Counted from the first letter of the stretch, positions 16,913 to 63,825 are shown. The stretch: 64,000 bases of DNA from Candidatus Levyibacteriota bacterium (GCA_003173895.1 PJMG01000006.1:2820-66819); one strand, 5' to 3'. Program-made: numbers and translations. Notes: a model not told the origin generated them from the sequence alone.

Positions 16913-17125
16913 TTGATAAAATTATTTTTGAAACTGCGAAAAAAAGTAATTAGTTATTTAAAATTACATGCAGAATTTAATGCTTTCATTCATGCATTGG
17001 GTGGAATTGGAGTTGGAATTTTAATAGCCTCTCCCCTAGCTAATCCACATCCTGTTAGATGGGCATTGGTTTTCTTAGGAATTAGTTTAGCCGGACATTT
17101 ATACGCTTTAGGCGCTAAAAAGTAA
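16913..17125 (+). CDS. small membrane protein
   Basis: 70 aa, TTG start preceded by SD AGGGGGTGA (16899-16907); two hydrophobic helices; ATGA overlap with the next gene. Confidence 0.5.
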   Translation: MIKLFLKLRKKVISYLKLHAEFNAFIHALGGIGVGILIASPLANPHPVRWALVFLGISLAGHLYALGAKK

Positions 17126-17934
17126 TGAAAAAAATAATTTTAATAATTATTAGTATTTTACTACTAGTAGGAATTTATTTTGTAATATTTAATCAATTTA
17201 TTTTTAAAAATCAAACTGGGAATAATGTTTTATCACCTACCCAACTAACTTCTTTACAGAACATAAACTGGAGTAAAGCGCAAGAAACGTCTCAACAAAC
17301 ATTTTATGGATTAATTTCAGGTAGACTTTATACTTTTAGTATATCTTCAAATGAAGCACAAATACAAACATTCGAAAATAAAGCAGAATTATCTAAATTA
17401 GGTTTTATTTTAGATTCTAATTTAGCAGCCAGCGGACCAGGTTCTAATATATGGGGTTATAAAAAAGTAACAAATGGGAAAACGCAAATTATTCTTTTTT
17501 CCTATCGAACTAGACCTAGTTCTAATAAACCCGATGAGCCATTACAGTTTAACTGTCCATGCGCTGTAGATTTAAATATTTTTATTAGTGATTCTTTTTC
17601 TATGACTACTTCTTTAACTCCAACTTCTTCAACATTACCAAATCCTGCATCTGAAAATTGTATTCAAAAAGGTGGAACTTTAAGAATTTTAAAGCGTGGT
17701 GATGGTGGCGAATATGGCTTATGTGATTTTGGAGATAATATGGCATGTGAAGAATGGGCTTTGCTTCGTGGACAATGTCCAGTAGGAGGTTTAAAAACTA
17801 CTGGCTATGATAATATTCAACAAATGTACTGTGCGTGGTTAGGTGGAAAAACACTAGCAGTACCTAATGCTAAATGTACTCTACCTTCTGGAAAAACCTG
17901 TAGTGTGGATGATGTTTATAATGGCAAATGTTAG
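17125..17934 (+). CDS. membrane-anchored protein with C-terminal DUF333 (putative hemolysin-like) domain
   Basis: NPASENCIQKGGTLRILKRGDGGEYGLCDFGDNMACEEWALLRGQC matches the DUF333 Cys pattern. Confidence 0.6.
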   Translation: MKKIILIIISILLLVGIYFVIFNQFIFKNQTGNNVLSPTQLTSLQNINWSKAQETSQQTFYGLISGRLYTFSISSNEAQIQTFENKAELSKLGFILDSNLAASGPGSNIWGYKKVTNGKTQIILFSYRTRPSSNKPDEPLQFNCPCAVDLNIFISDSFSMTTSLTPTSSTLPNPASENCIQKGGTLRILKRGDGGEYGLCDFGDNMACEEWALLRGQCPVGGLKTTGYDNIQQMYCAWLGGKTLAVPNAKCTLPSGKTCSVDDVYNGKC

Positions 17935-36263: not shown

Positions 36264-37136
36264 ATGAATGAATTTAATTTCGGGCAGTTTTTAAAAAAAT
36301 ACGGTAGTGAGAAAAAATGTTTGGATTACCTCATAAAACTTAAGTGTCCTGATGGTATTTACTGCAAACAATGTGAGAGGGTAAAAAAGTTTACAAAGAT
36401 TAGAACAAGAACTGTCTATCAATGCTCTTGTGGATATCAAGTAAGTCCACTAGTTGGAACAATCTTTGAAAAAAGTAGTACACCTTTAACTTACTGGTTT
36501 TACGCAATCTTCTTGATGTCTAATACCAGATCAGGCATATCAGCAAAACAGTTACAAAGAGAGCTTGGAGTAACTTACAAAACAGCCTGGAGGATGTTTA
36601 AACAAATAAGAATCTTGATGCAATACACGACAGATAAACTTAAAGGAACGATTGAAGTAGATGAAACTTATGTAGGAGGTAAAGGGTGGAATAGAAGATA
36701 TATTCCTAATTTTAATGAGAAACCGAAAGAAGTAGTTTTCGGGATGGTAGAAAGAAATGGGAATGCGAAGCTACTTCATTTACCAGGTAATGGTAGAAGA
36801 CAATTAGTCGAAGAAATTCAAAAAAACATAGATAAAGGCTCCTATATTATCAGTGATCAATATGCAGCATACAATTACGTAACAAAGATTGGTTATACCC
36901 ATGATTTTGTAACTCATCGAAAAGAGTATGTTAGTAAAAAAGATCCGAATGTTTACACACAAAATATCGAGAGCATCTGGTCTCACTTAAAGAGAGGAAT
37001 CTTTGGAGTTTATCGAAAGACTTCCAAGAAATACTTACAGAGTTACGTTAACGAATTTGCTTTTAGATATAACTATAGAAATCAAAATATGTTTGATATA
37101 TTGATTAAACAGTCAATTAATTCTAAAATTAAATAA
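36264..37136 (+). CDS. IS1595-family (ISXO2-like) DDE transposase with N-terminal zinc ribbon
   Basis: CPDGIYCKQCERV..YQCSCGYQVS zinc ribbon; VEVDETYVGGK; ISDQYAAYNYV; YTQNIESIWSHLKRGIFGVYRKTSKKYLQSYVNEFAFRYNYRN. Confidence 0.85.
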   Translation: MNEFNFGQFLKKYGSEKKCLDYLIKLKCPDGIYCKQCERVKKFTKIRTRTVYQCSCGYQVSPLVGTIFEKSSTPLTYWFYAIFLMSNTRSGISAKQLQRELGVTYKTAWRMFKQIRILMQYTTDKLKGTIEVDETYVGGKGWNRRYIPNFNEKPKEVVFGMVERNGNAKLLHLPGNGRRQLVEEIQKNIDKGSYIISDQYAAYNYVTKIGYTHDFVTHRKEYVSKKDPNVYTQNIESIWSHLKRGIFGVYRKTSKKYLQSYVNEFAFRYNYRNQNMFDILIKQSINSKIK

Positions 37137-38056: not shown

Positions 38057-38605
38057 ATGCCAGAGGAAACCATTTCTACTTCAGAACAAAAAACTTATGG
38101 TTATGGAAAAAGACCTCTTTGGCAATGGATTCTTCTTTATGTGGTTATAGGAGCTATTATTTATGGAATTATTTATTATTTTGTTTTCTATAAAAAAGGT
38201 GGTTATAACTATACTTCTGGAAATTCTTATCAATACCCTACTACAGCAGCTCAGCAAGTTACTACGACTCAAACACCAACTGTTTCCATCAGTCCAAGTA
38301 CATCCACTGCTCCCAGTGGAACTATGATAGCCGAAAAAATTACAGTAACAGGAACTGAATTTGCATTTAATCCTTCTACTATAAATGCTAAAGTAAATGA
38401 ACCTATCACAGTTACATTTAAAAATGATGGAACTTATCCACATAATTTCACTATTAGTGAATTAAATGTAAAGACTAAAACTATTCAACCAGGCGAAGAA
38501 GATACCATCACTTTTACACCTACTAAAACTGGTTCATTCATTTATCTCTGCACAGTTCCCGGACATGCTGATCGTGGCATGAAAGGAACATTAATCGTTC
38601 AATAA
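38057..38605 (+). CDS. membrane-anchored type-1 copper cupredoxin (plastocyanin/azurin family)
   Basis: Cu ligands in YPHNF and YLCTVPGHADRGMKG (His, Cys, His, Met); N-terminal TM. Confidence 0.85.
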   Translation: MPEETISTSEQKTYGYGKRPLWQWILLYVVIGAIIYGIIYYFVFYKKGGYNYTSGNSYQYPTTAAQQVTTTQTPTVSISPSTSTAPSGTMIAEKITVTGTEFAFNPSTINAKVNEPITVTFKNDGTYPHNFTISELNVKTKTIQPGEEDTITFTPTKTGSFIYLCTVPGHADRGMKGTLIVQ

Positions 38606-49764: not shown

Positions 49765-50490
49765 ATGAATAAAACAGAAGCCTTAAGTTATCAATTGTAT
49801 CTGGAACTACCCTATGATCCTACCGGAGAAAGCTATAGATTAGATCAACCTCAAACTGATGGGAGCGAAAATTTAGAGGTAAGAGATCAAGCAGTAGAAT
49901 TCGCCATGATGGAAAAACTTTTAGAACAAACTGCTGATGAAAATGTGAATTGGAAAAATATACTAGCTTCTTTAGATAATGAAAATAGGACTAATCAGCC
50001 TAGTTTATTTAGTCCGGATATACTTACTGCTACACTTAATTTATCTACTTTTAACAAAGTTCAATTTTCTGAAAGTTTCGGCTATCAAGGAAAAAAGCAT
50101 AATTATTCTCGATATGGAAATATGAATACTATCCCAGCTGGAAAGCAAATTCTTAACATGTCACTTCAGCCTTTTTCTGAAGATGTAATTTTACTTCACA
50201 CTATAGTAGGTTTACCAGAAACTAAAGAAAAGAATACTACTTTTAGAAATATCGAATTTACTTATATTCGCTCGAAAAGTACTAACCAACCACTCTATGT
50301 TTCATTGAAAGAACGAAGATCACAAAAACCAGCAGCTTCGATAGAAGATGAACCAACTTTTAATTTCACATTTATATTTCATCCTGAAGAGAATCCTAAA
50401 AATACTTTTCTGGAAATGTCTATAAGTGGAACTCAGAGACCCACACCTTTTCATGGATCATTTTACAACACGAGAAAAAGACTTTCATAA
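49765..50490 (+). CDS. orphan protein 1 (241 aa)
   Basis: long ORF with its own promoter; no recognisable motif. Confidence 0.6.
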   Translation: MNKTEALSYQLYLELPYDPTGESYRLDQPQTDGSENLEVRDQAVEFAMMEKLLEQTADENVNWKNILASLDNENRTNQPSLFSPDILTATLNLSTFNKVQFSESFGYQGKKHNYSRYGNMNTIPAGKQILNMSLQPFSEDVILLHTIVGLPETKEKNTTFRNIEFTYIRSKSTNQPLYVSLKERRSQKPAASIEDEPTFNFTFIFHPEENPKNTFLEMSISGTQRPTPFHGSFYNTRKRLS

Positions 50491-50519
50491 TTGACAATTT
50501 TAAAATAGATGATTATCAT
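50491..50519 (+). promoter_or_regulatory. promoter
   Basis: TTGACA (50491-50496), 17-nt spacer, TATCAT, 12 nt to ATG 50532. Confidence 0.5.
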
Positions 50520-50531
50520 GTTAATGATAAT

Positions 50532-51203
50532 ATGCCACGCAGCGAACTTATATGGCAAGAAGTTAAAGATCGTTTAAATCCTCGTATTATTCATACTAAA
50601 AATCCTGAACAATTTGCTCAAAAAATTGCTAAACATAGTTCTCGTAGAGAATTCATTCCCGAGCTAATAATTATAGAATCTAGTGTAAATCCTTTAACTG
50701 AAGGATTTCAAATGGAAACATATAGAGGCAATAAAACTATTCGCTACAGAGAAAATCCTCCACGTAGAAAAAAAGCTGAAGTAATTCCTCATAATTTATG
50801 TGAACCAACTAGACAAGCTAGTCAAGCTGCGAGAAGAGCTAGAGAAGAGAATTTATTACCGTCTATTTATCAAATAGCCACTTCTGCTAATGCTATAGCC
50901 AGTTTTTTAGATGAGACGGCGGGAGTAAGTAGTAATCTTGGATCTTGGGTAAGTGAAAATAGAATTGCTATTTTAAAAGCATTAAATACAGCTGTTAAAA
51001 GAGAAGATTCTGTTAGAGCAGCTATTAAAAATGAGTTTATTAAAAAAGGTGATCCTGAACCAGGAATTATGGTTCATTATTCACCAGGTTTTGGAGATTT
51101 AATAACACGCCGTATACATGGAGACAGAGAACAAGTATTACAAGTGCTTAATAAAAGCAACAATCCAGCAGCTATAGCTCCCTGGCCATCTAGTGGTAAA
51201 TAG
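50532..51203 (+). CDS. orphan protein 2 (223 aa)
   Basis: long ORF with its own promoter; Arg-rich; no motif recognised. Confidence 0.6.
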   Translation: MPRSELIWQEVKDRLNPRIIHTKNPEQFAQKIAKHSSRREFIPELIIIESSVNPLTEGFQMETYRGNKTIRYRENPPRRKKAEVIPHNLCEPTRQASQAARRAREENLLPSIYQIATSANAIASFLDETAGVSSNLGSWVSENRIAILKALNTAVKREDSVRAAIKNEFIKKGDPEPGIMVHYSPGFGDLITRRIHGDREQVLQVLNKSNNPAAIAPWPSSGK

Positions 51204-51211
51204 TAAGAAAA

Positions 51212-51964
51212 TTAAATAGGATCTTTACTCAATGCTTGTACTGCTAACGGATATAATTGTTTATAGATTTTGGCTCCCGCTTTTGCACCTTTTGCTATAA
51301 AAGGCCCTATGTGATATGACATAATCGTAGGAAGTATATCACCTTCAGCCAACCCATCTAGAGAAGCTAAAATAGTTTCTAAAGAGATTTGGAGTAATTG
51401 GTCTCCGGTAGGATCTTGAAGAAGTGAACTTCTGGCTAATTTTCTCTCGTTAAGTAATGTAGTTTTATTTGCCGCATCTTCTAGTAATCCTAATCGTGTT
51501 CGCCTGCGAAAACTTTCGGGAGATTTGGCTGTTTTTAGTTTTGCTTGTTCACTACCTAATAAAATACCATGAAGGACATTTTCTAAACCATATGAAAAGT
51601 CATACCAAAAAATAAAACCTATCTGAGAATTATCTTTATTAAATTGATTGGATATAGATTCCATGGGTAAGGAGATATTTTCTAGTATTGCCTCAGCAGT
51701 CAATTGAGGGGCTGTAGGTAGTATAGTCTTATACAATAAGCTTTTTTCTTTAAAATAACGTATTATTTTATTCTTATTTCTATAAATAGAATGAGTTATC
51801 TCTTGTATTAATGGCTCTCCCATTTCCTGTGTAAAATCCTGTATAGTAGATAAATTAGGATCTATTAATTGCCCTAAAGATGAACGTTCAGCAACTATGT
51901 CGCTTCTTTCACTCGTTGTAAGAGGAGACCAGAGATCTCCTAGACCGAATAGTTTTTCTGCCAT
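51212..51964 (-). CDS. orphan protein 3 (250 aa)
   Basis: long ORF with its own promoter; predicted mostly helical. Confidence 0.6.
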   Translation of the reverse strand: MAEKLFGLGDLWSPLTTSERSDIVAERSSLGQLIDPNLSTIQDFTQEMGEPLIQEITHSIYRNKNKIIRYFKEKSLLYKTILPTAPQLTAEAILENISLPMESISNQFNKDNSQIGFIFWYDFSYGLENVLHGILLGSEQAKLKTAKSPESFRRRTRLGLLEDAANKTTLLNERKLARSSLLQDPTGDQLLQISLETILASLDGLAEGDILPTIMSYHIGPFIAKGAKAGAKIYKQLYPLAVQALSKDPI

Positions 51965-51975
51965 AACCTGAGATC

Positions 51976-52003
51976 ACTTTAGCATATATTCTAGAATTGT
52001 CAA
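51976..52003 (-). promoter_or_regulatory. promoter
   Basis: minus strand TTGACA (51998-52003), 16-nt spacer, TAAAGT (51976-51981), 11 nt to the ATG. Confidence 0.5.
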
Positions 52004-52032
52004 TCTTAATTGGAGCTTACAGCCAGGCAAAT

Positions 52033-53664
52033 CTAATCTTTTGGAGGATCTAATCTTCTAGTAATATCATTAATTAGTCTTTCTACTACATATTCAGGAA
52101 CTCTGTCTTCTTCTGCTAAAGTTTGACAGTGACCCCATACTGTTAAATCAACTCCATCTATAAGTCCAGATAAATGTTCATTCTCATGGAAAGCTGTTGG
52201 TTGATTTACATTGTAATCATATTCTTCTCTTAATCTTTTAGCTAATTCTTGAACTTGCTTACTACTTAGATTAACTCCAATACTTGCTGCTCTTAATAAA
52301 GATACAAATTGTTGTACTTCTTTAGAATATCTTTGATCAGTTAAAAAAACTTTTAATCTTTGTGTATTTTGTGCTGAATAAGCAGTATTTTCACCTTTAT
52401 TATTAAGACCATCTAATCTAGCTGGTTGAATATTTAAATTCATACCATCAATATAGTTTAAAGCTACTAAATATACTTTTTCTCGTATTCCGTGCCACCC
52501 TACTCTAAATCTCTCAGTTGAAGCTACAAAAACTCCTTTTTCAGGATCAATAGAATAATTTCCTGTTATTCCTCTAGATACCATTTCTCTAGCTGTACTC
52601 TGCAATTTTGTTTTAGTGTCTATATCCAATTGATCAAAAAGAGTCATATTACCATCGATTATCACAGGAATTCCTCTTTTTAAATGAGCAGCTGTAGTGG
52701 CTTTTCCGATATTTGCTATTTGAGAATCATCAAATGTACAAGTAGCATAGTCATCGATTCTTAAACGACCCTCAGTAATCATAGTATAAATATCAGCTGC
52801 AAGCATTGTATCTGTAACCGCTGGTGCCATAGGTGTATTAAGATTAACTACTCTATACACATCTGTTAAATTTTCAGGTACAGAAGGTGGAATTTTAGTC
52901 AGCTCTAGATATTGTTTACTTGTTCCAACTGATACAATTCGAGCTTTAAAAGGTAAACCTAAAGCATTAACCATTTTTACATAATCATTGTACATTCTAA
53001 TAAAATATTTTAGTCTATCTGAAGTACTTACTCCTCGTCCAGGATCTTCAAAAATAAGAATTTGTCCCCCTTCAGGCAAAACATTAGACATAGCATGGAA
53101 AGCTCTACTATATAAATCTAAAAATGTGGTTCCTGAGGAAACTAAAATAGGATCTGAACTATCCCTTTTATCCATATGTCTTAATATATTACGCAAAAGA
53201 AGTATATCAGGAGTTCCAGCACCTCTTTGTTCAGCTTCATGTCTTATGATATCACTATCTAGCATTTCTACTACACCTACTGTAGCTCGTGAAGAATGAT
53301 TATTAGGTTCTAGATAAGGATTGATTCCAAAAAATGTATCTCTATTAAAGAATGGCATACTTGCCAGCTTATCTAAATGAGCTCCTGTTCTACCACAACC
53401 TATATCCCAAACTGTTAAGTGTATATCAGTAGCACCTAATACATGTTTAAGATCAAAATCTTCAATATAATTCTCTGCAGTAGGAACAAATAATCTTTCT
53501 ATTGGACCACCAATTACACTAATTTCTATATCAGTAAGCCTGGTTAATAAACTTTGATAAGCCTCACTATCACTAAATGCAGCTAGTATCCTTTGTTGAG
53601 GAGTAGGTGTATTTTCGCCTGGATTAACAGGCATTTGGTTTGGATTATTTAGTAATTCTCCCAT
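52033..53664 (-). CDS. orphan protein 4: class-I SAM-methyltransferase-like N-terminal region plus ~320-aa unknown C-terminal region
   Basis: LTVWDIGCGRTGAHL (motif I-like), PDILLLRNILRHM, LPEGGQILIFE; the remainder is unassigned. Confidence 0.45.
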   Translation of the reverse strand: MGELLNNPNQMPVNPGENTPTPQQRILAAFSDSEAYQSLLTRLTDIEISVIGGPIERLFVPTAENYIEDFDLKHVLGATDIHLTVWDIGCGRTGAHLDKLASMPFFNRDTFFGINPYLEPNNHSSRATVGVVEMLDSDIIRHEAEQRGAGTPDILLLRNILRHMDKRDSSDPILVSSGTTFLDLYSRAFHAMSNVLPEGGQILIFEDPGRGVSTSDRLKYFIRMYNDYVKMVNALGLPFKARIVSVGTSKQYLELTKIPPSVPENLTDVYRVVNLNTPMAPAVTDTMLAADIYTMITEGRLRIDDYATCTFDDSQIANIGKATTAAHLKRGIPVIIDGNMTLFDQLDIDTKTKLQSTAREMVSRGITGNYSIDPEKGVFVASTERFRVGWHGIREKVYLVALNYIDGMNLNIQPARLDGLNNKGENTAYSAQNTQRLKVFLTDQRYSKEVQQFVSLLRAASIGVNLSSKQVQELAKRLREEYDYNVNQPTAFHENEHLSGLIDGVDLTVWGHCQTLAEEDRVPEYVVERLINDITRRLDPPKD

Positions 53665-53724
53665 AATATTTTGCCTTAAAGCCGTATGCGAATATTATCC
53701 TATATTACGACTAAATTAACCCAT

Positions 53725-53753
53725 ATTATATAATAATGTCTAAAAAATGTCAA
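53725..53753 (-). promoter_or_regulatory. perfect-consensus promoter of orphan 4
   Basis: minus strand TTGACA (53748-53753), 17-nt spacer, TATAAT (53725-53730); 60-nt leader (the only long leader in the block). Confidence 0.6.
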
Positions 53754-53914
53754 CACTATGCGACAGCTCTCTTATTCTAGAAAAGAGTGAATTTTCTAAT
53801 TTTTACAGTACAATATAGCACTGGTGGAAAGAAGTTTTTTACTTTAAAATTTGAGATTTTTATTTTTTTTAAACGGGTTGCGAAGTGGAAACTAATCTTA
53901 AAATATGTCCTATA

Positions 53915-54301
53915 TTATTGACCGGGCTCCTTTTCTAACGCCTCTACTATGAGTTGTCTTAACTCTTCTTTATCCAAAGTTCTTGAATAGTCCCCTATTT
54001 CAACTTTCCATGTAGTTTCATCTACTCTAGTTACACCTGTAGGTTCTGTAGGTAAATAACTCCATCCAGGATTTTCAGTAAATTCAGTAAATAATTTAGC
54101 TATTTCTGGATTAATGGCTAAACTTATAACTGTACTACCCACTTTAGCATCAAGTGCTTGCATTAAAAGACTTAAACTAATATTTTTACCCTCTCCAACT
54201 GGAATTAAAACAGGTCTTTGTGAATCTATTGAAATATCATTTAGCCAATCTGGTAACTTACCTGCCCTAATTAATGGGTGTTCATTTTCATTAGCTGACA
54301 T
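53915..54301 (-). CDS. orphan protein 5 (128 aa)
   Basis: ORF; no motif recognised. Confidence 0.5.
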   Translation of the reverse strand: MSANENEHPLIRAGKLPDWLNDISIDSQRPVLIPVGEGKNISLSLLMQALDAKVGSTVISLAINPEIAKLFTEFTENPGWSYLPTEPTGVTRVDETTWKVEIGDYSRTLDKEELRQLIVEALEKEPGQ

Positions 54302-54373
54302 ATGGATATTTTAGCAAAATTAAATTTTGTTTTCTATTAAAGTATATATTCTCAGTTAATTTTATTACTCGCG

Positions 54374-54898
54374 CTAAGATTCTAATTCAATAAGTCCTTT
54401 GTCGCTATCAATTTTAACCATATTTAAGAGAGTTGTTGCGTCTTCAAGTCTTTGTCTTGCTTTTTCTAATTCTGTTTCTGCTGATGTAACTCCTGTTTTA
54501 GCAGAATCCATTTCGTATTCAGCTTCTTTTACGACTGCTACAATATTTTCTCTTGCAAGACGCTTAAACAATTTATCGGCGTAGGGAAATTTTAATTCTA
54601 ATAATCTAGTGAGGAATAAAGTTTCTTCAACTGTTGCACGTCTATTTATTAATGGAGATAAATCAAACGAATTTCCTCCTTGAGCTTCTGATTGAATCAG
54701 AAAAACTCCTTTAATTTCGCCGTCTCCATATCTAGGAGACGCAAAAAGATTTAGATTCACTGGTTGTGATAAGTATGAAATACCTGGAATTTGATACGTA
54801 ACGTTAAATTGTTCAGCTCCAGGAGTTCCTAAAATGCGCAATTTTTCCGCTTCTGTTTGGAAATCTTGATTTGGTAGTGAATATTTTTCTATTGACAT
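54374..54898 (-). CDS. orphan protein 6 (174 aa, C-terminal coiled-coil-like)
   Basis: ORF with its own promoter; C-terminus AETELEKARQRLEDATTLLNMV. Confidence 0.55.
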   Translation of the reverse strand: MSIEKYSLPNQDFQTEAEKLRILGTPGAEQFNVTYQIPGISYLSQPVNLNLFASPRYGDGEIKGVFLIQSEAQGGNSFDLSPLINRRATVEETLFLTRLLELKFPYADKLFKRLARENIVAVVKEAEYEMDSAKTGVTSAETELEKARQRLEDATTLLNMVKIDSDKGLIELES

Positions 54899-54907
54899 AA
54901 CTTATTG

Positions 54908-54936
54908 ACTATACTATATCTTGTAATTGTATTCAA
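54908..54936 (-). promoter_or_regulatory. promoter, near-leaderless
   Basis: minus strand TTGAAT (54931-54936), 17-nt spacer, TATAGT (54908-54913), 9 nt to the ATG. Confidence 0.5.
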
Positions 54937-54995
54937 GTTCCTAGACATATTAATTAGTGTAACCATTAATAACTTCATTTCAATGATTTACTGAA

Positions 54996-55583
54996 TTACG
55001 AACCTTTGCTTAAAGCTAGGAGTACCAATGGCCCTGATGGCTCTTTGGTATTATCACTAGTTTCCCCTTTTGCGAACGTGCTATATACTTGACCTACCAT
55101 AGGTTGAGTATCTCCAGATGCTTGAATTAAACTTGGATCTTTAGAAATCATTTGTCCTACTACATTCATACCCCACCAACTATCATTTAAAGCCTCTTGT
55201 CCAGGCATTAATACTTGTTTTTGCACATCATATATTAAAGCATTAGAATTCCCATTTAGTGAATAAACGTTTACTATTAAATCTCTCTCATCTCTACCTG
55301 ACTGACGAGAGGTAATAGGATAATTTCTAGCTACTCTAATTTTTATACCCTGATTAACTAATTTCAGATTATGTAAATCAACCTCTTCTATTCTACCTAC
55401 TTCACCAGCCAGATTTTCTGGTGTGGGAATAAAATGACTATGATTTGCTTCTGAACAAGCTGTAAGCAGCATATCTGCTAACATGGGTAGTCCTAGAGTT
55501 ACTGCAGTACCCCATTTTAAAAATCCTCTTCTATCCATGGTTCTTTTAGGTGTAATTTGCTTTTCTGCTTCTGAATTTAACAT
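54996..55583 (-). CDS. orphan protein 7: predicted Tat-signal lipoprotein
   Basis: twin-arginine motif DRRGFLKWG, h-region TAVTLGLPMLADMLL, lipobox LLTAC; SD GGAG 11 nt upstream; 3 nt after the upstream gene. Confidence 0.6.
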   Translation of the reverse strand: MLNSEAEKQITPKRTMDRRGFLKWGTAVTLGLPMLADMLLTACSEANHSHFIPTPENLAGEVGRIEEVDLHNLKLVNQGIKIRVARNYPITSRQSGRDERDLIVNVYSLNGNSNALIYDVQKQVLMPGQEALNDSWWGMNVVGQMISKDPSLIQASGDTQPMVGQVYSTFAKGETSDNTKEPSGPLVLLALSKGS

Positions 55584-55586
55584 GCT

Positions 55587-56219
55587 TTATATTTCTCCTC
55601 TCTCTGCTCTTAATTGAGCCTGATCTCTATTAGCTATAACGTGATGTGTTATTATTTCTGGTTGATCAACATATCCTAATATTCCTCTATCTGCTACCAA
55701 ATCATATTTCTCTTTCACAGTGGAAAGTTTTGATAAGGCTACAGCTGCTGTTCTGGCAGAATCAATAATTATTTTTGCTACTGTTTCACCAGTACACCAT
55801 ACTTCATATTGTCTTTCTTTTCCTATTTTCTCTGGATGACTTGCTCCAAATCTAGTATGACGAATAAGATCATTATTGTTATAAGTGTGAACATTTTCTG
55901 TATTAAGATCCCCGTAGATGGCGTTAATAAGGAATTTAACAGAACTATTTATAGCTAATCCTATACCATCTTCTCCTGCAATAGTGAAGATTGCTACCAT
56001 TGCTGGTGTCCAAGTTGGATAATATTCTCCAAAGTCGTTAAAAAGATCATCAACTGCAGCTAATATTGCCTCACCATAATGTACTTCTCCTCCTTGAGAT
56101 AATAATTCTAAAAAGTGTTTTTCAATTCGTTGGTTTAGTGCAGTTACAGGTTTTTTTATAGTACCAAGCTCACTTTGATAGCTAACTTCCCCTTTAGCTA
56201 AATCAGCTAAATATCCCAT
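55587..56219 (-). CDS. orphan protein 8 (210 aa), co-transcribed with the Tat lipoprotein gene
   Basis: ORF; 3-nt gap to 54996..55583. Confidence 0.55.
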   Translation of the reverse strand: MGYLADLAKGEVSYQSELGTIKKPVTALNQRIEKHFLELLSQGGEVHYGEAILAAVDDLFNDFGEYYPTWTPAMVAIFTIAGEDGIGLAINSSVKFLINAIYGDLNTENVHTYNNNDLIRHTRFGASHPEKIGKERQYEVWCTGETVAKIIIDSARTAAVALSKLSTVKEKYDLVADRGILGYVDQPEIITHHVIANRDQAQLRAERGEI

Positions 56220-56252
56220 AGCTACTTCTGCATATTCAGCCTGCTCTGGATT

Positions 56253-56495
56253 TCAGGTCATTTCTACATGATAGTGAGGTGAATATTTTATAGGTAAATT
56301 TAGTTGATCAGTTTGAGCGGTAAGTTGAGGATGCATATCTCGGTAATACCCTCCTCTATATTCTGTACCATCTATTTTATTAAATATACTTACATCTTTA
56401 AAAATATCATTTACTTGAGAAAAGGTAGGATTACCTAATTTACCACGGAGAATTTCTTTTCGTCCACGAGGTCCCTGATTTGGTTCTACTGACAT
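56253..56495 (-). CDS. orphan protein 9 (80 aa)
   Basis: start moved to ATG 56495 (MSVEPNQGPRGRK..); the track start (TTG 56531) lies on the -35 box. Confidence 0.5.
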   Translation of the reverse strand: MSVEPNQGPRGRKEILRGKLGNPTFSQVNDIFKDVSIFNKIDGTEYRGGYYRDMHPQLTAQTDQLNLPIKYSPHYHVEMT

Positions 56496-56502
56496 GCGCA
56501 AT

Positions 56503-56540
56503 ATAATAACACCTATTATTTCAAAATGCAAATTATAGGA
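56503..56540 (-). promoter_or_regulatory. leaderless promoter with upstream TCCTATAAT box
   Basis: minus strand TCCTATAAT (56532-56540) TTGCAT (56526-56531), 17-nt spacer, TATTAT (56503-56508), 7 nt to the ATG. Confidence 0.55.
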
Positions 56541-56642
56541 TTAGGTTTATTTCACAGGATAAGTTTTAGCAAAGTTATACACCATTTTTTGTGAATGTTT
56601 ATCCCAATCTCCAGAAAAGGATGAGTGATTATGTTTAATTCG

Positions 56643-57515
56643 CTATTTTCTGATTGATCTAACCAGAGGATATCTTTCAGCGACTTGTGGAAGACTATAG
56701 GTTTTTGCTCGTAATGCTCTTATAAATTCTGGACCCCAAGGTGTTAATTCTCCAAGCCTAGTATCTTCATTATTTAAAACATTCTCTGAAAGAAATTTAG
56801 TTAAAAAAATAGTTACAATATATATAACTAAAGGATTACTAACTACATCAGGTAGAGAAACATCTAAGGGGCTTATGGGATGAAAGTCGAAAGGTAAACC
56901 TGTGACACGAGATACTGCGAGAGCTGTAAAAAGTAAAACTCCAGCTAAATCTCCTTTATTAATAGTTGTTAGATGTTTTATTCCAAGATCAGTTATTCCC
57001 TCAATTAAAGCCTGATTTATAACAGAAGCTCTGACAGCAGTATTTCTAAGAGTCTCATCTTTTTTATGAGTTTCATCATTTATTCTCTGTTGAACCAAAG
57101 TTATTACACCATTACCCCAACGAGCTCCATGAGGAATTCTTCTCTCATTCATTGCTTCTAACTCTGCTCTACTTATAGGTTTCTCACCTGTAGCAACTGC
57201 TTCACCTGTACCAGCATTTCCTGCTAATCCACTAATTTGTATGCCAAAATTATTTCTCTGTACATTTGTATCAACACCTATTGTAATTTTCCCTAAACCA
57301 AAAGATCGACAAGCAGTTGCCATACGATCAAAATCAATTACTATTTCCTCTGACATTTCTTTTGGAGCAATATTCGTTAACCCTTCAATTTCAAATGTAA
57401 TGGTTTTTTTACCTGGATCTGAAATTGTAATATTTCCTGCTTCAGTTAGTTCTCTTAATGTAAGGGTTCTTTGTTCTCTTAATGGGCCATTTTGTTCAGG
57501 TGAGGAATTAGACAT
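56643..57515 (-). CDS. orphan protein 10 (290 aa) with two C-proximal TM segments
   Basis: GDLAGVLLFTALAVSRVTGLPF and VVSNPLVIYIVTIFLTKFL hydrophobic segments. Confidence 0.6.
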   Translation of the reverse strand: MSNSSPEQNGPLREQRTLTLRELTEAGNITISDPGKKTITFEIEGLTNIAPKEMSEEIVIDFDRMATACRSFGLGKITIGVDTNVQRNNFGIQISGLAGNAGTGEAVATGEKPISRAELEAMNERRIPHGARWGNGVITLVQQRINDETHKKDETLRNTAVRASVINQALIEGITDLGIKHLTTINKGDLAGVLLFTALAVSRVTGLPFDFHPISPLDVSLPDVVSNPLVIYIVTIFLTKFLSENVLNNEDTRLGELTPWGPEFIRALRAKTYSLPQVAERYPLVRSIRK

Positions 57516-57521
57516 AGAGGA

Positions 57522-57559
57522 ACTTTACCAAAAAATTTTGGACATGTCAATTATAGGAC
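57522..57559 (-). promoter_or_regulatory. leaderless promoter with upstream GTCCTATAA box
   Basis: minus strand GTCCTATAATTGACA (57545-57559), 17-nt spacer, TAAAGT (57522-57527), 6 nt to the ATG. Confidence 0.6.
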
Positions 57560-57706
57560 AGTTTCTCTAAAACATATAAGTGTTTTTTTAAATAAAACTC
57601 AGATAATTGCTCCAGGCCAAACGAGTCAGAAATATAACCTAAGTTACATAGTATTTATAATGCTGTAAAACAAGGTGATTTTAGTACTGCTTTAAAAGAA
57701 ATAATT

Positions 57707-59404
57707 TTATTCTTCCAAAGATGAGTGTACAGGATCTGCGAATAATTTTTGCAATAGTTTTAGTAAATCTGCGTCAATACCATTTGGTAGACGATTTGCA
57801 CGTTCTGCCATCGCAACTAAATTTGTTACTACATCAAATTCTTTATTAAAATGGATAGGATCCTTATATAGATCTCCATACCGTTCTGGGAAAACTATAC
57901 CCCCCATAATCATACCAAGTGTATGTATCCTTATTTGTATATGTCGATTGTATCCGTATTCATTATGATCATAAATTTTAAATATAGGAGACAGATTAGG
58001 TTGCTCTTTTTCTATTTCACTTGCTAATGATAAATAGTTATAGATAAATAGCGATTTTAACTGATTTAATGTGTCTGCATCTTTAGATCTCCTTCCTGCA
58101 AAGGTGGGCGCTTTTCTTTTATTCTCTATTTCATCTAATCCAATAAGATGAGGCATCTTATGTCTTCCTTTGATCACAGAATCTAAACTTTTTAACCCAT
58201 ATGCTATATTATTCAACTCTTCTGCTGGAGTAGCGTTAGTATTTATTGATGCATTAGCTTTTATATACTCATTTACTCTTTTTACACTTTCATCATCTGG
58301 TAAACTTTCTAATGTGTCATTTCCAGGAGTAAAAGCACGCGCTATATCTCTTACTGTCATTAATAAGTAATGAGGAGTTCCACCCATAGGAAATGTAATA
58401 TATACAGAATTAATAGAGGGCATGTTTATGTCTCTTGGTAACATTTGCATCATTTTTTCTAGCCTGGGAGATGTACGTACCATAATATTTATACCCATAC
58501 GTTCTCTATCACGAAGAGAAAGAACCAGAACATCGTGAGCAATAGCAATAACTTCTTCTTCACTAGTGTATCCATATGGACGCTTTATTTCATTTTCTTG
58601 TAAGCTTTTTAATACATTTTCTGCTGATTTTGTCTTTTGCCATAATTTTTCTCGCGATGCTTTAGCTTTCCTTATACTTTGATCTATAGCAGCTTTAGCA
58701 TATGCGGTATCCGGAGTGTATGAAACTCTATCGTCTTCTCTTTGCCCATGAAAAGTTGCCAGACTTTGTGCATAAGTAAACCATTCTGAAAGAGCTTCAT
58801 TATTCATAGAGGATATATGGGTTTTGGCATAACGATAAATTGCTCTTTGTATATAAGGGTTAATTTTTCTTTCATCCATTTCATCTATATTCACATTATA
58901 GATATCCACAGTTTCCTGATTTATATCTTTGAGTATACTTGTTAAAACAATAGGTTTTGGTTCTTCCTGTCCTACCGGTCCTTTTTCAGAAAACGAAATG
59001 GCTACACAATTACCATAAGTAGGAATTTCTGTTATTACAATATTAAGACCCAAATGAGGAAGCATTTTCTCCAATGCCTCTTGAGTAGTTATATTACTAT
59101 TCTTTGCATAAGCATCAGCATATGAGTTAACTGTGTTAAAAACATTTTGTACAAACTTATTTTTTTCCTCTTCTATATTATCCCCTTCTGAAGGAGATAA
59201 GGTAGGTAAACCATCTAAGATACGTGCAATATGTATAAATTGGTATCCAATACGACGTAAAGAAGTAATAGTTTCTCCTTGTATTAAATTCTTTTCTCTA
59301 CTTAGATTATTTAGATAAGTAATTACACCACTTGTACCATCAATTCCTTCTAATCTTCTATCAATATTTGTTAATACTTGTTTTACTTGTCTGTTTTCAG
59401 TCAT
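57707..59404 (-). CDS. orphan protein 11 (565 aa)
   Basis: long ORF with its own promoter; no motif recognised, no P-loop. Confidence 0.65.
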   Translation of the reverse strand: MTENRQVKQVLTNIDRRLEGIDGTSGVITYLNNLSREKNLIQGETITSLRRIGYQFIHIARILDGLPTLSPSEGDNIEEEKNKFVQNVFNTVNSYADAYAKNSNITTQEALEKMLPHLGLNIVITEIPTYGNCVAISFSEKGPVGQEEPKPIVLTSILKDINQETVDIYNVNIDEMDERKINPYIQRAIYRYAKTHISSMNNEALSEWFTYAQSLATFHGQREDDRVSYTPDTAYAKAAIDQSIRKAKASREKLWQKTKSAENVLKSLQENEIKRPYGYTSEEEVIAIAHDVLVLSLRDRERMGINIMVRTSPRLEKMMQMLPRDINMPSINSVYITFPMGGTPHYLLMTVRDIARAFTPGNDTLESLPDDESVKRVNEYIKANASINTNATPAEELNNIAYGLKSLDSVIKGRHKMPHLIGLDEIENKRKAPTFAGRRSKDADTLNQLKSLFIYNYLSLASEIEKEQPNLSPIFKIYDHNEYGYNRHIQIRIHTLGMIMGGIVFPERYGDLYKDPIHFNKEFDVVTNLVAMAERANRLPNGIDADLLKLLQKLFADPVHSSLEE

Positions 59405-59418
59405 AACTATTTTTTGAG

Positions 59419-59447
59419 AGTATACTGTAGTTAATAATAATTATCAA
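59419..59447 (-). promoter_or_regulatory. promoter
   Basis: minus strand TTGATA (59442-59447), 17-nt spacer, TATACT (59419-59424), 14 nt to the ATG. Confidence 0.5.
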
Positions 59448-59538
59448 CTATTAATAATATAGGTGGTTTAAATTTGGTGAATCTATTTAGATTTATAGTT
59501 TGCGTCAATTAATGTAGCGGGAAATTTAAATTATAAAT

Positions 59539-59886
59539 TTATACTTTAACTCTTATAAAATAGAACTCACTGGCTTCATTTCCATTAGCTTCTATCTTAT
59601 GCATAGAATTGGCATGTACGATAATAACATCATCCTTTTTATATTCTATTTGCTCTTCTTCGCAGAAATAATTACCTGTGCCTTTTATAACTATACATAC
59701 TTCATCCATATTTTCATGTTTATGCCAATCCCAAACTTGTCCAGGTTTTAAAAAACCTTTAGTAATGGCTTCCAGATTCTCTGTAGTCAGATGATGAGGG
59801 TAGACTAATGTTTTTCTGGAATTTGGCACATCATGAATGGCCTCAAAAGGTATATCATCTATATTAAGTTTTAAGAATTTCTTCAT
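59539..59886 (-). CDS. cupin_2-domain protein
   Basis: cupin motif 1 PGQVWDWHKHENMDEVCIVIKGTG; motif 2 DDVIIVHANSMHKIEAN. Confidence 0.8.
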   Translation of the reverse strand: MKKFLKLNIDDIPFEAIHDVPNSRKTLVYPHHLTTENLEAITKGFLKPGQVWDWHKHENMDEVCIVIKGTGNYFCEEEQIEYKKDDVIIVHANSMHKIEANGNEASEFYFIRVKV

Positions 59887-59934
59887 TAAATAAAGTATAG
59901 CAAAATTTATGAGGATTTATTTTTACTTAAGATA

Positions 59935-60327
59935 TTAATTACGTCGTTCTCCTTCAACTGATTGAAGTATACTTATTTTACCTCCTCTACGTATTCTTAC
60001 CCAATACCAATCAGGATTTCTTCGTACTCCTTCTCCTCCACCTTCGGGATAGTCAAAATACTCCACGCTATACTTAGTGCGTTCAGAGCCTAAGAAGTTC
60101 AGAAAGGGTTTACCTGTTCCACGTCTTCTAACTTCCATACGACTCTTATGATATCCATATCTTTCACCACCACTAAAAAAATCCATTATAGCCTTACCAC
60201 TATTAACATCAACCTTAATGTGATTATATGGGTGTCTATCAGGATCACGTACATCTCCTGTTTCAAATGTTATATCCCATGGTTGTCCCATTTCAAGAAG
60301 AACCATTAATAACTCTGGATTTGGCAT
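59935..60327 (-). CDS. orphan protein 13 (130 aa, Arg/Gly-rich)
   Basis: ORF with its own promoter. Confidence 0.55.
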   Translation of the reverse strand: MPNPELLMVLLEMGQPWDITFETGDVRDPDRHPYNHIKVDVNSGKAIMDFFSGGERYGYHKSRMEVRRRGTGKPFLNFLGSERTKYSVEYFDYPEGGGEGVRRNPDWYWVRIRRGGKISILQSVEGERRN

Positions 60328-60334
60328 AAAGAGA

Positions 60335-60363
60335 ATTTTACTAAATAGTTATTTAAAAAACAA
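60335..60363 (-). promoter_or_regulatory. promoter, leaderless configuration
   Basis: minus strand TTGTTT (60358-60363), 17-nt spacer, TAAAAT (60335-60340), 7 nt to the ATG. Confidence 0.45.
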
Positions 60364-60442
60364 GAAGAATTAAAAAAATTCCTATCACATTAAAGAGGAA
60401 ATATGATACAGTAGAAATGCTAAAAGTTATAAGTAAAGTAAA

Positions 60443-60601
60443 ATGAATGGTGTTGAAGTAACTGCTATTATTACAATTATTGCTTTCTCGATTAGAGGAA
60501 TGATTTCATTAGTAGTTATTATTTGGGGAGGGAAAAAAGTGAAAAAATATTTTGATAAGAAAAATAGTATAGTAGAAAACCATAATCAAGATAAATTATA
60601 A
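60443..60601 (+). CDS. unannotated 52-aa single-TM protein (below ORF-track cutoff)
   Basis: MNGVEVTAIITIIAFSIRGMISLVVIIWGGKKVKKYFDKKNSIVENHNQDKL: TM helix then basic tail; more plausible than the antisense track ORF 60519..60737. Confidence 0.35.
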   Translation: MNGVEVTAIITIIAFSIRGMISLVVIIWGGKKVKKYFDKKNSIVENHNQDKL

Positions 60602-60667
60602 AAAGAATGCCCCACAGGCTGTTGGTTATATCCTCAATCTTATCTACTGTACAATAATTATTAGCGT

Positions 60668-60967
60668 ATGCTAAGATTTTTATGGATGGCAAATGTACCA
60701 GAAACCGATAAATGTCCCGGTTTAGATTATTCTCCAATACAACCAGTTATTATTGATATTGCATTTGGCGATGGACGAATAAATAGAATTTTTTGGGGGA
60801 AAGTAGGACAACTGCTAGGAATTAATAAAAGAAGATTTCCAAAAGGACAATGTGGAGCTGGTCGATTGGGCAATGAAATGATAACTTCAAACAATCCAAA
60901 TGGTTCAATTCTACGAGCAGATTGTGCTAGTTGCAGTAGAAGAACTGAAGTAAGAAGAATTCAATAA
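60668..60967 (+). CDS. orphan small Cys-containing protein (99 aa; start uncertain, alternative ATG 60686)
   Basis: ORF; TACAAT-like box about 12 nt upstream. Confidence 0.45.
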   Translation: MLRFLWMANVPETDKCPGLDYSPIQPVIIDIAFGDGRINRIFWGKVGQLLGINKRRFPKGQCGAGRLGNEMITSNNPNGSILRADCASCSRRTEVRRIQ

Positions 60968-60994
60968 TTTTTAAAAAGTAAATTTTGAGAATTA

Positions 60995-61696
60995 TTAATG
61001 GGAGATTTTTTTACTATAGTCTTCAGCAATTCTACTAATCTCTTCTATGTGTCTATTTATTAAGTTTTGCATAGTTCTTCTATCTATTACTGTTAATAAA
61101 TTTTGCGCATCACCTGCTATAGCACCTACAAACCTTTCCGCTACTTCTTTTAATAATGGCAGTTGTCTTAAAAGTCTTTCTCTCTCTTCTGAATCAATAC
61201 CTTTATCATTTTTTATGATCTCCGGTAATGCTTCCTCAAATCGCCTGGAAGCGGAACGAATAAAATGACTACCAAGCCCTTCGATTAAACCTACAGCTAT
61301 ATCCGAAGTGGTTCTAACTCGTCTATCACCTGAAACAGGAGGAACAGGAACTACTGCAGTGGACTGATTTTCTGAAGTCTCTGATGACGGTAGCGGTATC
61401 TGATTAGTAATATGATGTAATAAGGGTTCATTAACTTGACGGCCTAATTCAGCAGCTGTAAGTGATTGAAGTAATTGAACTTCACGTCCAGTAGTTAATC
61501 CCAATAAAGTAGGCATATGATATGCATCCAGAAGAACACCTGCAGGTTGGTATGCTAACTGTGCAGCCATCTCAATCCCTCTAAGTTCTGCGTCTGATAT
61601 AGTTCCTTTTATAGTAGTAATAGTATCTTCAACCCTTCTAACTGTTCCTTGTACTCTTTCTGTTAAATTTTTACCTAATTTTCTAAGATCTTCCAT
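60995..61696 (-). CDS. orphan protein 14 (233 aa)
   Basis: ORF with its own promoter; helical, Arg/Glu-rich. Confidence 0.6.
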   Translation of the reverse strand: MEDLRKLGKNLTERVQGTVRRVEDTITTIKGTISDAELRGIEMAAQLAYQPAGVLLDAYHMPTLLGLTTGREVQLLQSLTAAELGRQVNEPLLHHITNQIPLPSSETSENQSTAVVPVPPVSGDRRVRTTSDIAVGLIEGLGSHFIRSASRRFEEALPEIIKNDKGIDSEERERLLRQLPLLKEVAERFVGAIAGDAQNLLTVIDRRTMQNLINRHIEEISRIAEDYSKKISH

Positions 61697-61710
61697 ATAT
61701 TCTAGAACGA

Positions 61711-61739
61711 AATGTACACCTCCAAAGTACTCTTGTCAA
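61711..61739 (-). promoter_or_regulatory. promoter (divergent pair, minus member)
   Basis: minus strand TTGACA (61734-61739), 17-nt spacer, TACATT (61711-61716), 14 nt to the ATG. Confidence 0.55.
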
Positions 61740-61754
61740 TAGCTTGGTTAAAAT

Positions 61755-61783
61755 TTGACAACTACGATTTTATGTCCTATAAT
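61755..61783 (+). promoter_or_regulatory. promoter (divergent pair, plus member), leaderless
   Basis: TTGACA (61755-61760), 17-nt spacer ending ..GTCC, TATAAT (61778-61783), 8 nt to ATG 61792. Confidence 0.6.
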
Positions 61784-61791
61784 TCTGCCCT

Positions 61792-62418
61792 ATGAGTGAA
61801 TCTTTTAACCCCCATGCAGCTTATGAAAAATGGCGTCAATCTCTACCCGATTATTCTGTAGGCTTAAGAGGTCAAAGTTCCCAATTCAACGAGACTATTC
61901 TAGAACATGGTTTTGATAAACGCAGATGGTATTTTGCTATTAATCTTTCTGAACTAGATTGGGATGGGATGAGAGAAATTAGAGGAGAACTTCATGACTG
62001 GTTTGACTATTTAGTACGCTTTGGAAAAGAAGCTAGTACTAATAAATCAAGAGAAATTACTTTGGATACTCCAGAACAATGTTTAACTTATTTCAGTCAA
62101 CATCCTCAAGAGTATATATCACTTTTGTTATTAAAATTTCCTGGAATTAGAGGATGGTATCATTCACATAATATAATTAGAGTGAGCTTAGGCGGTGAAG
62201 AACAACAAACATTTCAACATAAACTCTCTCGTAACTTTATAGTTAAAGATCTTTATTTAAACCAATCAGACTTTGAAAGAGTGCGAGAGGAATTAGTTAA
62301 AAGAGGGTTAGATCTTAATGATCCGAAATATAAAGATATTATGACCAATAAACTTTCTCGTTTAATGTTAAGAAAAGTGTTAAGTGAAATAACACATCTT
62401 GAGAGTTCTGAGAGATAA
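61792..62418 (+). CDS. orphan protein 15 (208 aa)
   Basis: ORF with a consensus promoter. Confidence 0.6.
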   Translation: MSESFNPHAAYEKWRQSLPDYSVGLRGQSSQFNETILEHGFDKRRWYFAINLSELDWDGMREIRGELHDWFDYLVRFGKEASTNKSREITLDTPEQCLTYFSQHPQEYISLLLLKFPGIRGWYHSHNIIRVSLGGEEQQTFQHKLSRNFIVKDLYLNQSDFERVREELVKRGLDLNDPKYKDIMTNKLSRLMLRKVLSEITHLESSER

Positions 62419-62426
62419 AACAAAGC

Positions 62427-63044
62427 TTAATTAACTCCGTTTTTACCTTCTTTTATCATTATTATTGCGTAAGGTTGATCTTTAATTAAGTTTAATAATT
62501 CTGGATTTTCATAAAAATGAGCGCTACCCGCCTGTAAAATAAGTTTTCTTCTTAAATATCTATATCTGAATTTTCGTAAAGTATCTTTTATAGTAGCATT
62601 GAGTGAATCATTTCGTTGTAGTGCTTTTAAATTCGATTCTTTTTGTTTTTCCAAAGCTATATTTGTTAGATGTAACCTTTCTTGCATTGAAATTCCGAGC
62701 TCTTCTGATGCTGTAGTTGCTGCATTGGATTCTTCTTGTAAAGCGTCAGATTCATCGTATTTTTTTATATCATCCCACCCTATCGTTTTAGTCCCAAATT
62801 TTACTCCAAATTCTCTTCTACTTAATCTCCATGGATATCTTCTTCCTTTTTCGCGCCCTTCAATAGCTAGTAAATGTCCTAAACCAGTATGTTCTTTTAT
62901 TATTCTATTTTCATTTTGAACTGAGTCTGCGTCTTCATGATTAAGTCCAATACAAATAACTCGGGCTTTTTTAAGCGGAACGTTAGCTGAATAAATAGTA
63001 TATGCTTCTTGATTCATAGAGAAAATTTTATCATAGGATTGCAA
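62427..63044 (-). CDS. orphan protein 16: possible Tiki/ChaN/TraB-superfamily fold (weak)
   Basis: ARVICIGLNHEDADSVQNE..LLAIEG and LILQAGSAHFYENPELL resemble the GxxH...E / GxxH(L/F) motif pair of that superfamily; overlaps the upstream gene by 14 nt. Confidence 0.35.
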   Translation of the reverse strand: MQSYDKIFSMNQEAYTIYSANVPLKKARVICIGLNHEDADSVQNENRIIKEHTGLGHLLAIEGREKGRRYPWRLSRREFGVKFGTKTIGWDDIKKYDESDALQEESNAATTASEELGISMQERLHLTNIALEKQKESNLKALQRNDSLNATIKDTLRKFRYRYLRRKLILQAGSAHFYENPELLNLIKDQPYAIIMIKEGKNGVN

Positions 63045-63825
63045 TTGGATTACCTTCTAGATCCACAGGTAGTAAACCTTTTTTAATAAGCAGTTGAGCG
63101 GCAAATCTAAAGCGAGGTTGTAACAATTCGTATAAATATAAAGGAACTACGATAACTTCACAAGATTTTCCATTTGTAAATGTTAATGTATATTTGACAC
63201 TATTGGCTATACTATATTCTCCACGCCTTACCTGTGGTTTAGAAGTATAATTGAGTTTTTGATTTTCCACAGCCATTACTGGAAAGATATAGTAAGGATC
63301 TTCTGGAAAATGGCGTTCTTTGTCAGCTAAATCATATATAAAAGTAGTTAATCTGTTAAAAGGTCCTTTAGATTCACAGGTATACAATTCTGCTCGTTGC
63401 ACATTTTGTATACCTACATGCTTAGACACATGCTTAAAATATGCTTTATGCCAACCTCTTCTTTCTACTAAAAATGCTGTATTAGCCAGATCATGTCTTT
63501 GCCTAGAAGTAAAAGTACCGTTGAGATATGTTTGAACAGTTTCTTCATGAATTTGTTTTTCTTCGTCAGTAAGCTGAGTTAAAATCGCAGCTTCATGAAA
63601 TCCTGGAGCTTTAACATTACATATGGTTCTTATTCCTATATGATTCCCACTTAAATAATATAAGTCTTGTGTATCAGTTTGTATAGGATTATACTCTCTC
63701 TTTCTTCTCATCCCTAGTCGTAGCAGAGTTTCCCCCATAACATTAACTTCTCCTGATTTTGTTTTGAAAGGAGGACGCACATTACCTGATTCCTGATTTC
63801 TAATGAGAAATTCTACTAGTGGCAT
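63031..63825 (-). CDS. orphan protein 17 (264 aa), first gene of a two-gene operon
   Basis: ORF with a leaderless consensus promoter; 14-nt overlap with 62427..63044. Confidence 0.6.
   Translation of the reverse strand: MPLVEFLIRNQESGNVRPPFKTKSGEVNVMGETLLRLGMRRKREYNPIQTDTQDLYYLSGNHIGIRTICNVKAPGFHEAAILTQLTDEEKQIHEETVQTYLNGTFTSRQRHDLANTAFLVERRGWHKAYFKHVSKHVGIQNVQRAELYTCESKGPFNRLTTFIYDLADKERHFPEDPYYIFPVMAVENQKLNYTSKPQVRRGEYSIANSVKYTLTFTNGKSCEVIVVPLYLYELLQPRFRFAAQLLIKKGLLPVDLEGNPIAIL

Follow-up and report, generated by a model that had tools for sequence, protein, structure and literature searches.

Two questions are raised by the gene at 54996..55583 of the 64-kb window (the whole stretch of DNA analyzed here): is its product a genuine lipoprotein with a twin-arginine (Tat) signal, and is the signal-less protein encoded just upstream a functional partner? 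A sequence-only reading of the locus had proposed a two-gene operon in which the Tat-signal lipoprotein lies 3 nt downstream of a 210-aa open reading frame (ORF) at 55587..56219, whose product would be a hitch-hiker or a chaperone. We arrived instead, with a probability of about 0.55, at a bicistronic unit of an ultra-small, as yet uncultivated bacterium of the CPR in which a first gene broken by an in-frame TGA is followed by a gene for a genuine Tat-type lipoprotein, the two not forming a functional pair. The observation is largely correct as far as the sequence goes, except that the upstream gene was mis-delimited; the Tat-lipoprotein reading is plausible and finds support in homologues.

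The window is a segment of a bacterial chromosome of 31 to 34% GC that encodes a sigma-70 factor, GlnA, Nramp, TrkH, MFS and ABC transporters, and a histidine kinase. GlnA was 72 to 80% identical to proteins from Paceibacterota, Levybacteria, and Daviesbacteria MAGs, the nearest being those labelled Paceibacterota and Microgenomatia, and these identities identify the organism as a CPR/Patescibacteria bacterium. TatA and TatC have been reported in some Microgenomatia, Paceibacteria, and Saccharimonadia, with Tat patchy across the CPR (PMC9166423). A Pfam scan of 60 window ORFs (all but three of those of at least 100 aa, plus one of 92 aa) detected no tatA or tatC in the 64-kb window, as had been noted before, and no lgt or lspA. 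Also encoded are NlpE- and DUF333-domain proteins (12420-12971, minus strand; 17125-17934, plus strand), which are lipoproteins in other bacteria; here they had Lys-rich n-regions, very hydrophobic transmembrane (TM) anchors, and no lipobox Cys. Since the usual lipoprotein families are without a lipobox in this window, lipoprotein processing may be little used or absent in the organism.

The 195-aa ORF begins with MLNSEAEKQITPKRTMDRRGFLKWGTAVTLGLPMLADMLLTAC, followed by SEANHSH, and comprises the following features, in which the earlier description of a twin-arginine motif, an h-region, and a lipobox was confirmed:

54996..55583, minus strand: second cistron, a 195-aa precursor of a putative Tat-type lipoprotein
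55458..55583, minus strand: signal peptide, residues 1-42, with an n-region of 17 residues
55515..55535, minus strand: Tat motif D-R-R-G-F-L-K, residues 17-23 (RR at 18-19)
55455..55469, minus strand: lipobox L-L-T-A-C, with Cys as residue 43
54999..55457, minus strand: mature domain, Cys43 to Ser195, 153 aa
55595..55601, minus strand: Shine-Dalgarno (SD)-like AGAGGAG within the 3' end of the first cistron, finishing 11 nt before the lipoprotein ATG

At the boundary of the n- and h-regions, DRRGFLK agrees with the Tat consensus S/T-R-R-x-F-L-K at 6 of 7 positions, with Asp replacing Ser/Thr, and at the end of the h-region L-T-A-C fits the pattern [LVI][ASTVI][GAS]C. No other window ORF of at least 60 aa combined an RR motif with a lipobox. 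Lower hydrophobicity of the h-region is an established trait of Tat signals. The mean Kyte-Doolittle value of this h-region was 1.12, compared with 3.1 to 3.3 in four of the five other N-terminal anchors of the window and 1.96 in the fifth, that of a cupredoxin protein; the presence of one Asp and one Pro within the h-region counts against a Tat signal. The Pfam TAT_signal profile (PF10518) aligned its positions 2-16 with residues 16-30 (E 0.0005 to 0.004), scoring 17.6 bits when the full-length protein was scanned and 20.4 bits when only its first 50 residues were, both below the gathering cutoff of 22.7; it gave 12.7 bits or no match on the homologues, and no TIGR/NCBIfam Tat model (including TIGR01409) matched the signal. 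Proteins of the window are Lys biased (R/(K+R) = 0.36) and native n-regions carry nearly all Lys, versus RR followed by G-F-L-K here. Codon usage marked both the lipoprotein gene (z = -0.56) and the first cistron (z = +0.70) as native to the genome; with GC content and codon usage like those of the window at large, the signal was not freshly imported. A foreign or recently transferred gene was therefore rejected on the basis of these values, together with the lack of any match to a phage family (PHROG) and scans of viral contigs that came back empty. Of the alternatives offered earlier, a real Tat substrate or a decayed or foreign signal, the foreign one falls away, and the recurrence of the motif in homologues and the weakly hydrophobic h-region speak for a genuine signal of the Tat lipoprotein type, rather than one arisen by chance. 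As a separate observation, the cupredoxin/plastocyanin-like copper protein (38057-38605, plus strand), a classic Tat candidate, has an N-terminal TM anchor with a KR pair, not RR, and yet no Tat motif.

Among about 15 billion predicted proteins, the family of the lipoprotein numbers four. When 1.84 billion representatives were searched exhaustively with phmmer and a profile search was added, only three relatives emerged, at 37 to 44% identity: P0004 and P0005 from phmmer and P0008 from the profile search, a word-indexed search having returned only the query protein. Two further proteins from the exhaustive search (P0006 and P0007) are repetitive and were treated as spurious, and scans of viral contigs, genome contigs, and metagenome contigs found no more relatives of either the lipoprotein or the first-cistron family. 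P0005 (176 aa, from a contig of 54% GC) has the N terminus ISRRRLFGGAFVTVAAMTLWLSGC / MSQEKISRRRLFGGAFVTVAAMTLWLSGC with the motif SRRRLF, and P0008 (195 aa, from farmland soil) has LSRRAFLAILAGGAVVVMTGC / MKRSDTQAEHKAQSGLSRRAFLAILAGGAVVVMTGC with SRRAFL. The called P0004 starts at an internal Met, upstream of which its frame runs on as ...EIRISRGALLAATAAGALWLAGC. The lipobox Cys was invariant in all four members, with L-S-G-C, M-T-G-C, and L-A-G-C as the homologue lipoboxes, and RR was retained in each of the three copies with an intact start (the window protein, P0005, and P0008). Because signal peptides diverge fast and these proteins are only 37 to 43% identical, the recurrence of [S/D]-R-R-x-[F/L]-[L/F] is the best available evidence for a functional motif; the family being one of four, the sample behind this argument is n = 3 plus 1.

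The remaining copy, on contig L084 (3169-3813), is 82% identical to P0008 from the Cys onward, and its motif reads SRGALL. Nucleotide alignment against the P0008 gene revealed that the codon for the second Arg had changed from CGC to GGC (RR to RG), the start from ATG to ACG, and the SD from AGGAGA to GCAGAGA, while the promoter hexamers and the mature domain were still intact. The whole signal of this copy seems defunct; either the signal peptide is decaying, or the protein has become a cytoplasmic form translated from an internal Met.

In the mature domain, the four sequences share the motifs DER-L-N, LPG, WW-N, D-S, G-T--VG--Y-T---GE, and P-GP-V--A, and the window ORF is intact and keeps every family-invariant residue. 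The four-member comparison yielded no invariant Cys, His, or Met, and hence no hint of a metal or redox cofactor; in its cofactor part, the suggestion that Tat export implies a folded or cofactor-bearing cargo finds no support. The domain is predicted to be beta rich. AlphaFold2 models were of low confidence (pLDDT of 30.7 from the single sequence and 51.7 from four sequences), and profile searches of the PDB for a related fold were empty or insignificant.

The signal-less upstream gene extends beyond the 210 codons first assigned to it, as laid out here:

55587..56495, minus strand: first cistron, a 302-codon frame from ATG at 56495 to TAA at 55587, with one in-frame TGA and no signal peptide or TM segment
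56253..56255, minus strand: the in-frame TGA (codon 81), aligned with TGG (Trp) in the homologue P0003
55587..56219, minus strand: 210-aa ORF, a 3' fragment covering the 3' two-thirds of the first cistron
56253..56531, minus strand: 92-aa ORF directly upstream, in the same frame as the 210-aa ORF and parted from it only by the TGA

Among 5.8 billion clustered proteins, the 210-aa ORF had one relative, P0003, a 292-aa protein encoded on a 2.2-kb contig (L001; Logan SRR22387911). P0003 was 52% identical to the 302-codon frame from end to end, the part upstream of the TGA included; roughly its first 85 residues matched the 92-aa ORF, and in tblastn it crossed the TGA in a single HSP (56471..55605, 50% identity, E 1.5e-88). 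At the stop itself, HVEMT*NPEQAEYAEVAMGYLADLAKG in the window aligns with HVEMTWTPDQLEYVEVAFGYLADLAKG in P0003, in which that codon is TGG. The start Met of the 210-aa ORF corresponds to an internal Phe of P0003 (VAMGYLADL versus VAFGYLADL), and the 11-codon stretch separating the TGA from this ATG has kept its conservation as protein (NPEQAEYAEVA versus TPDQLEYVEVA). Given a frame split by a TGA and a homologue that aligns across it, the 210-aa "partner" is the C-terminal fragment of one interrupted gene. Neither the 210-aa fragment nor the fused 302-aa sequence nor P0003 matched any Pfam, NCBIfam, PHROG, or PDB entry, and, as judged from its sequence, the first cistron represents a very rare, uncharacterized cytoplasmic protein family. 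The annotation is corrected accordingly: the "210-aa gene" and the "92-aa gene" are one interrupted gene, which removes the basis for the partner or chaperone model.

The TGA at 56253-56255 may have arisen by a recent nonsense mutation, may be a sequencing or assembly error that went uncorrected, or may act as a leaky stop. No independent contig covering the TGA was found in our searches, the Logan contig L002 ending 9 nt upstream of the lipoprotein gene, and the products of 80, 92, 210, and 290 aa had no record elsewhere. Stop codons in the window comprised 52 TAA, 8 TAG, and 4 TGA, with TGA closing 3 of 63 genes. The other three TGA stops are soon followed by further stops, and with these ordinary stops so backed the standard code applies; 56253-56255 was also the sole place in the window where a single TGA joins two long open segments. 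A change of code (TGA as Trp or Gly) was rejected on both grounds. Selenocysteine insertion or programmed recoding was rejected as well, since the sequence 3' of the TGA forms no hairpin beyond chance (z = -0.18), no Rfam family was found within 51-61 kb, and the homologue has Trp rather than Cys at this position.

How such a unit would be expressed is suggested by the gene starts and by one further feature:

56503..56532, minus strand: sigma-70-like promoter TTTGCA-18-TATTAT with an upstream TG, a consensus match only

With its -10 hexamer ending 7 nt short of the ATG at 56495, this candidate promoter would imply a leaderless or near-leaderless transcript for the first-cistron unit. A -10-like hexamer ending 4 to 13 nt before the start was found for 27 of the 63 window genes, versus 12% at random positions, and many of these boxes also had TTGACA at the right -35 distance; an SD-like motif preceded 5 of 63 genes, equal to the random background of 8%. 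Promoter-abutting starts elsewhere on the minus strand include those at 57522-57550, 54908-54936, 54308-54336, and 51976-52003. Expression in this CPR genome may thus be mostly leaderless or near-leaderless, as the consensus matches suggest. Within the orphan block at 52-60 kb, every gene but that for the 195-aa protein had a promoter-like site at its start, and the 195-aa gene was the sole carrier of an SD, in line with the earlier description of it as the only block gene with a classical one. Lack of its own promoter combined with the sole SD of the block is what is expected of the second cistron of an operon, and its ATG lies 3 nt past the TAA of the upstream frame, exactly as described. 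The two-gene operon accordingly stands as regards spacing and a shared unit, although promoter and operon structure are putative, being consensus matches only, and its first gene is the 302-codon frame with a TGA and not the 210-aa ORF.

The putative shared transcription was not accompanied by conserved neighborhood. The lipoprotein and the 302-aa gene were adjacent in none of the three contexts of lipoprotein homologues (contigs L083, L084, and L085) and not in the one context of a first-cistron homologue (L001). On L083, close to a dcw cluster, genes for a DUF1761 protein and a PIF1-type helicase flank a solitary lipoprotein homologue; L084 and L085 contained no relative of the 302-aa protein; and in L001, P0003 is followed by an unrelated 328-aa ORFan. 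With neither family's relatives keeping the pairing, the hitch-hiker or chaperone idea is not supported, and the adjacency of the two genes in the window is probably local happenstance, to judge from these contexts, rather than a conserved functional pair. On L001 itself, the genes, P0003 included, have a promoter abutting the start codon, as in the window. Both contig ends (1-29 and 2133-2157) resemble the 3' ends of tRNA genes (T-loops GGTTCGAATCC and GGTTCAAGTCC), one per strand and with the 3' ends toward the gene pair; ARAGORN called no tRNA there because these ends are truncated, and a tRNA cluster may be the site of the two-ORFan insert.

In the bicistronic reading that we prefer, transcription would start at the promoter abutting the first ATG (56495), and the 210-aa fragment would be made at best by re-initiation or read-through; the second cistron lacks a separate promoter and therefore depends on a ribosome-binding site, and one is present. 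The lipoprotein precursor would fold in the cytoplasm and be recognized by a TatAC translocase via the S/D-R-R-x-F/L-L/F motif, after which Lgt would lipid modify Cys43, signal peptidase II would cleave, and the mature protein would stay anchored on the outside of the cell's single membrane. In view of the missing conserved metal or redox ligands, use of Tat would reflect export of a pre-folded, not a cofactor-bearing, protein.

The main competing account of the signal is that of an ordinary Sec-dependent lipoprotein with an SPII signal, in which the two Arg simply supply the positive charge of the n-region and the resemblance to a Tat motif is fortuitous. We consider it possible but doubtful. 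Many RR-containing signals are known to use Sec, and the subthreshold Tat profile scores, the RG in place of RR in one homologue, the patchiness of Tat in the CPR, and the lack of conserved cofactor ligands would all be in keeping with it; but that a Lys-rich genome should place RR and then G-F-L-K in this signal, that the motif recurs in both other intact homologues despite 37 to 43% identity, and that the h-region is far less hydrophobic than the Sec-type anchors of the window argue for Tat, and the lone RG copy is also without a start codon and SD. It is unlikely that the signal is instead a relic, a decaying or non-exported remnant in an organism without Tat and/or Lgt/Lsp and in an operon that is itself decaying, its first gene having been broken already. 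The premature stop upstream, a window without genes for Tat or lipoprotein processing, the missing lipobox in the usual lipoprotein families, and the L084 homologue as an example of how the family's signal can decay would agree with such a course, against which stand an intact ORF with all of its family-invariant residues, native codon usage, and the retention of the full RRxFLK motif, lipobox, and SD together.

With respect to the first cistron, the proposal that the upstream signal-less protein serves as a Tat hitch-hiker cargo or as a signal-binding (REMP-type) chaperone for the lipoprotein now appears very improbable. The 3-nt spacing and shared transcription unit that suggested it do resemble known systems (HyaA/HyaB, DmsA/DmsD, TorA/TorD, and NapA/NapD), in which a signal-less protein is likewise encoded beside a Tat-signal protein in one transcription unit; in contrast to those pairs, there was here no homology (TorD/DmsD, NapD, HyaE, and all other families, Pfam included, gave no match), no conserved co-occurrence (an unrelated 328-aa gene next to P0003 and no such gene near P0005, P0004, or P0008), an upstream frame interrupted by TGA, and a cargo without cofactor ligands. 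Site-specific read-through or incipient reassignment, with the TGA decoded as Trp and an intact first cistron translationally coupled to the lipoprotein gene, also seems improbable. UGA, which tRNA-Trp misreads, is the leakiest of the stop codons, P0003 carries Trp at the exact position, the 11 codons past the TGA are conserved at the protein level, and TGA is rare in the genome (3 of 63 genes); on the other side, the three other TGA codons act as true stops, no further TGA-joined frame was found across 64 kb, no structure lies downstream of this one, and the base following it is A and not the C of leaky contexts. The most far-reaching combination, that the 195-aa protein founds an undescribed, very rare family of Tat-exported surface lipoproteins, possibly as a pre-folded factor of host or partner contact, and that in addition the upstream TGA is read as Trp, is a long shot when both parts are taken jointly.

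Tat-type lipoprotein signals are of a known kind, and what is new here is the family, a very rare one, found to bear such a signal in a CPR genome. As in the Tat-dependent lipoproteins known from Streptomyces and other Actinobacteria and from haloarchaea, the protein combines a motif of the S/T-R-R-x-F-L-K type, a long n-region, a mildly hydrophobic h-region rich in Ala, Gly, and Thr, and a lipobox Cys, and in a monoderm-type envelope the product would likewise be located on the outside of the cell membrane. Unlike them, its mature domain has no detectable characterized relative, its Pfam TAT_signal score is subthreshold, and its host is a CPR bacterium with putative Tat and Lgt/Lsp. If export is Tat dependent, the protein would be a concrete candidate substrate, showing that a minimal CPR cell has kept the ability to export a protein already folded and to anchor it by a lipid, and would be of use to those studying episymbiont surfaces; if the TGA is read as Trp, it would be a first hint of site-specific decoding of UGA as Trp in a code-11 CPR lineage. 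The finding opens no major question.

Several minor observations concern the surrounding sequence. The sigma-70 factor (907-3153, plus strand; 748 aa) has regions 1.2 to 4 all within residues 487-736, preceded by an N-terminal extension of about 480 aa in which no domain was detected. The orphan stretch (49765-63825) is longer than the block previously described and consists of about 16 consecutive ORFs without a Pfam match, except for one cupin (59539-59886); its GC content and codon usage are still typical of the window. A perfect consensus promoter (TTGACA-17-TATAAT; 53725-53753, minus strand) lies about 60 nt upstream of a 543-aa ORF (52033-53664), one of a handful in the block whose transcripts would carry a true 5' leader; DIGCGRTG in the N-terminal part of its product recalls SAM-methyltransferase motif I, with no profile match in support. 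An IS1595-family transposase (DDE_Tnp_IS1595 plus zinc ribbon; 36264-37136, plus strand) shows that a mobile element lies some 15 kb away from the orphan block.
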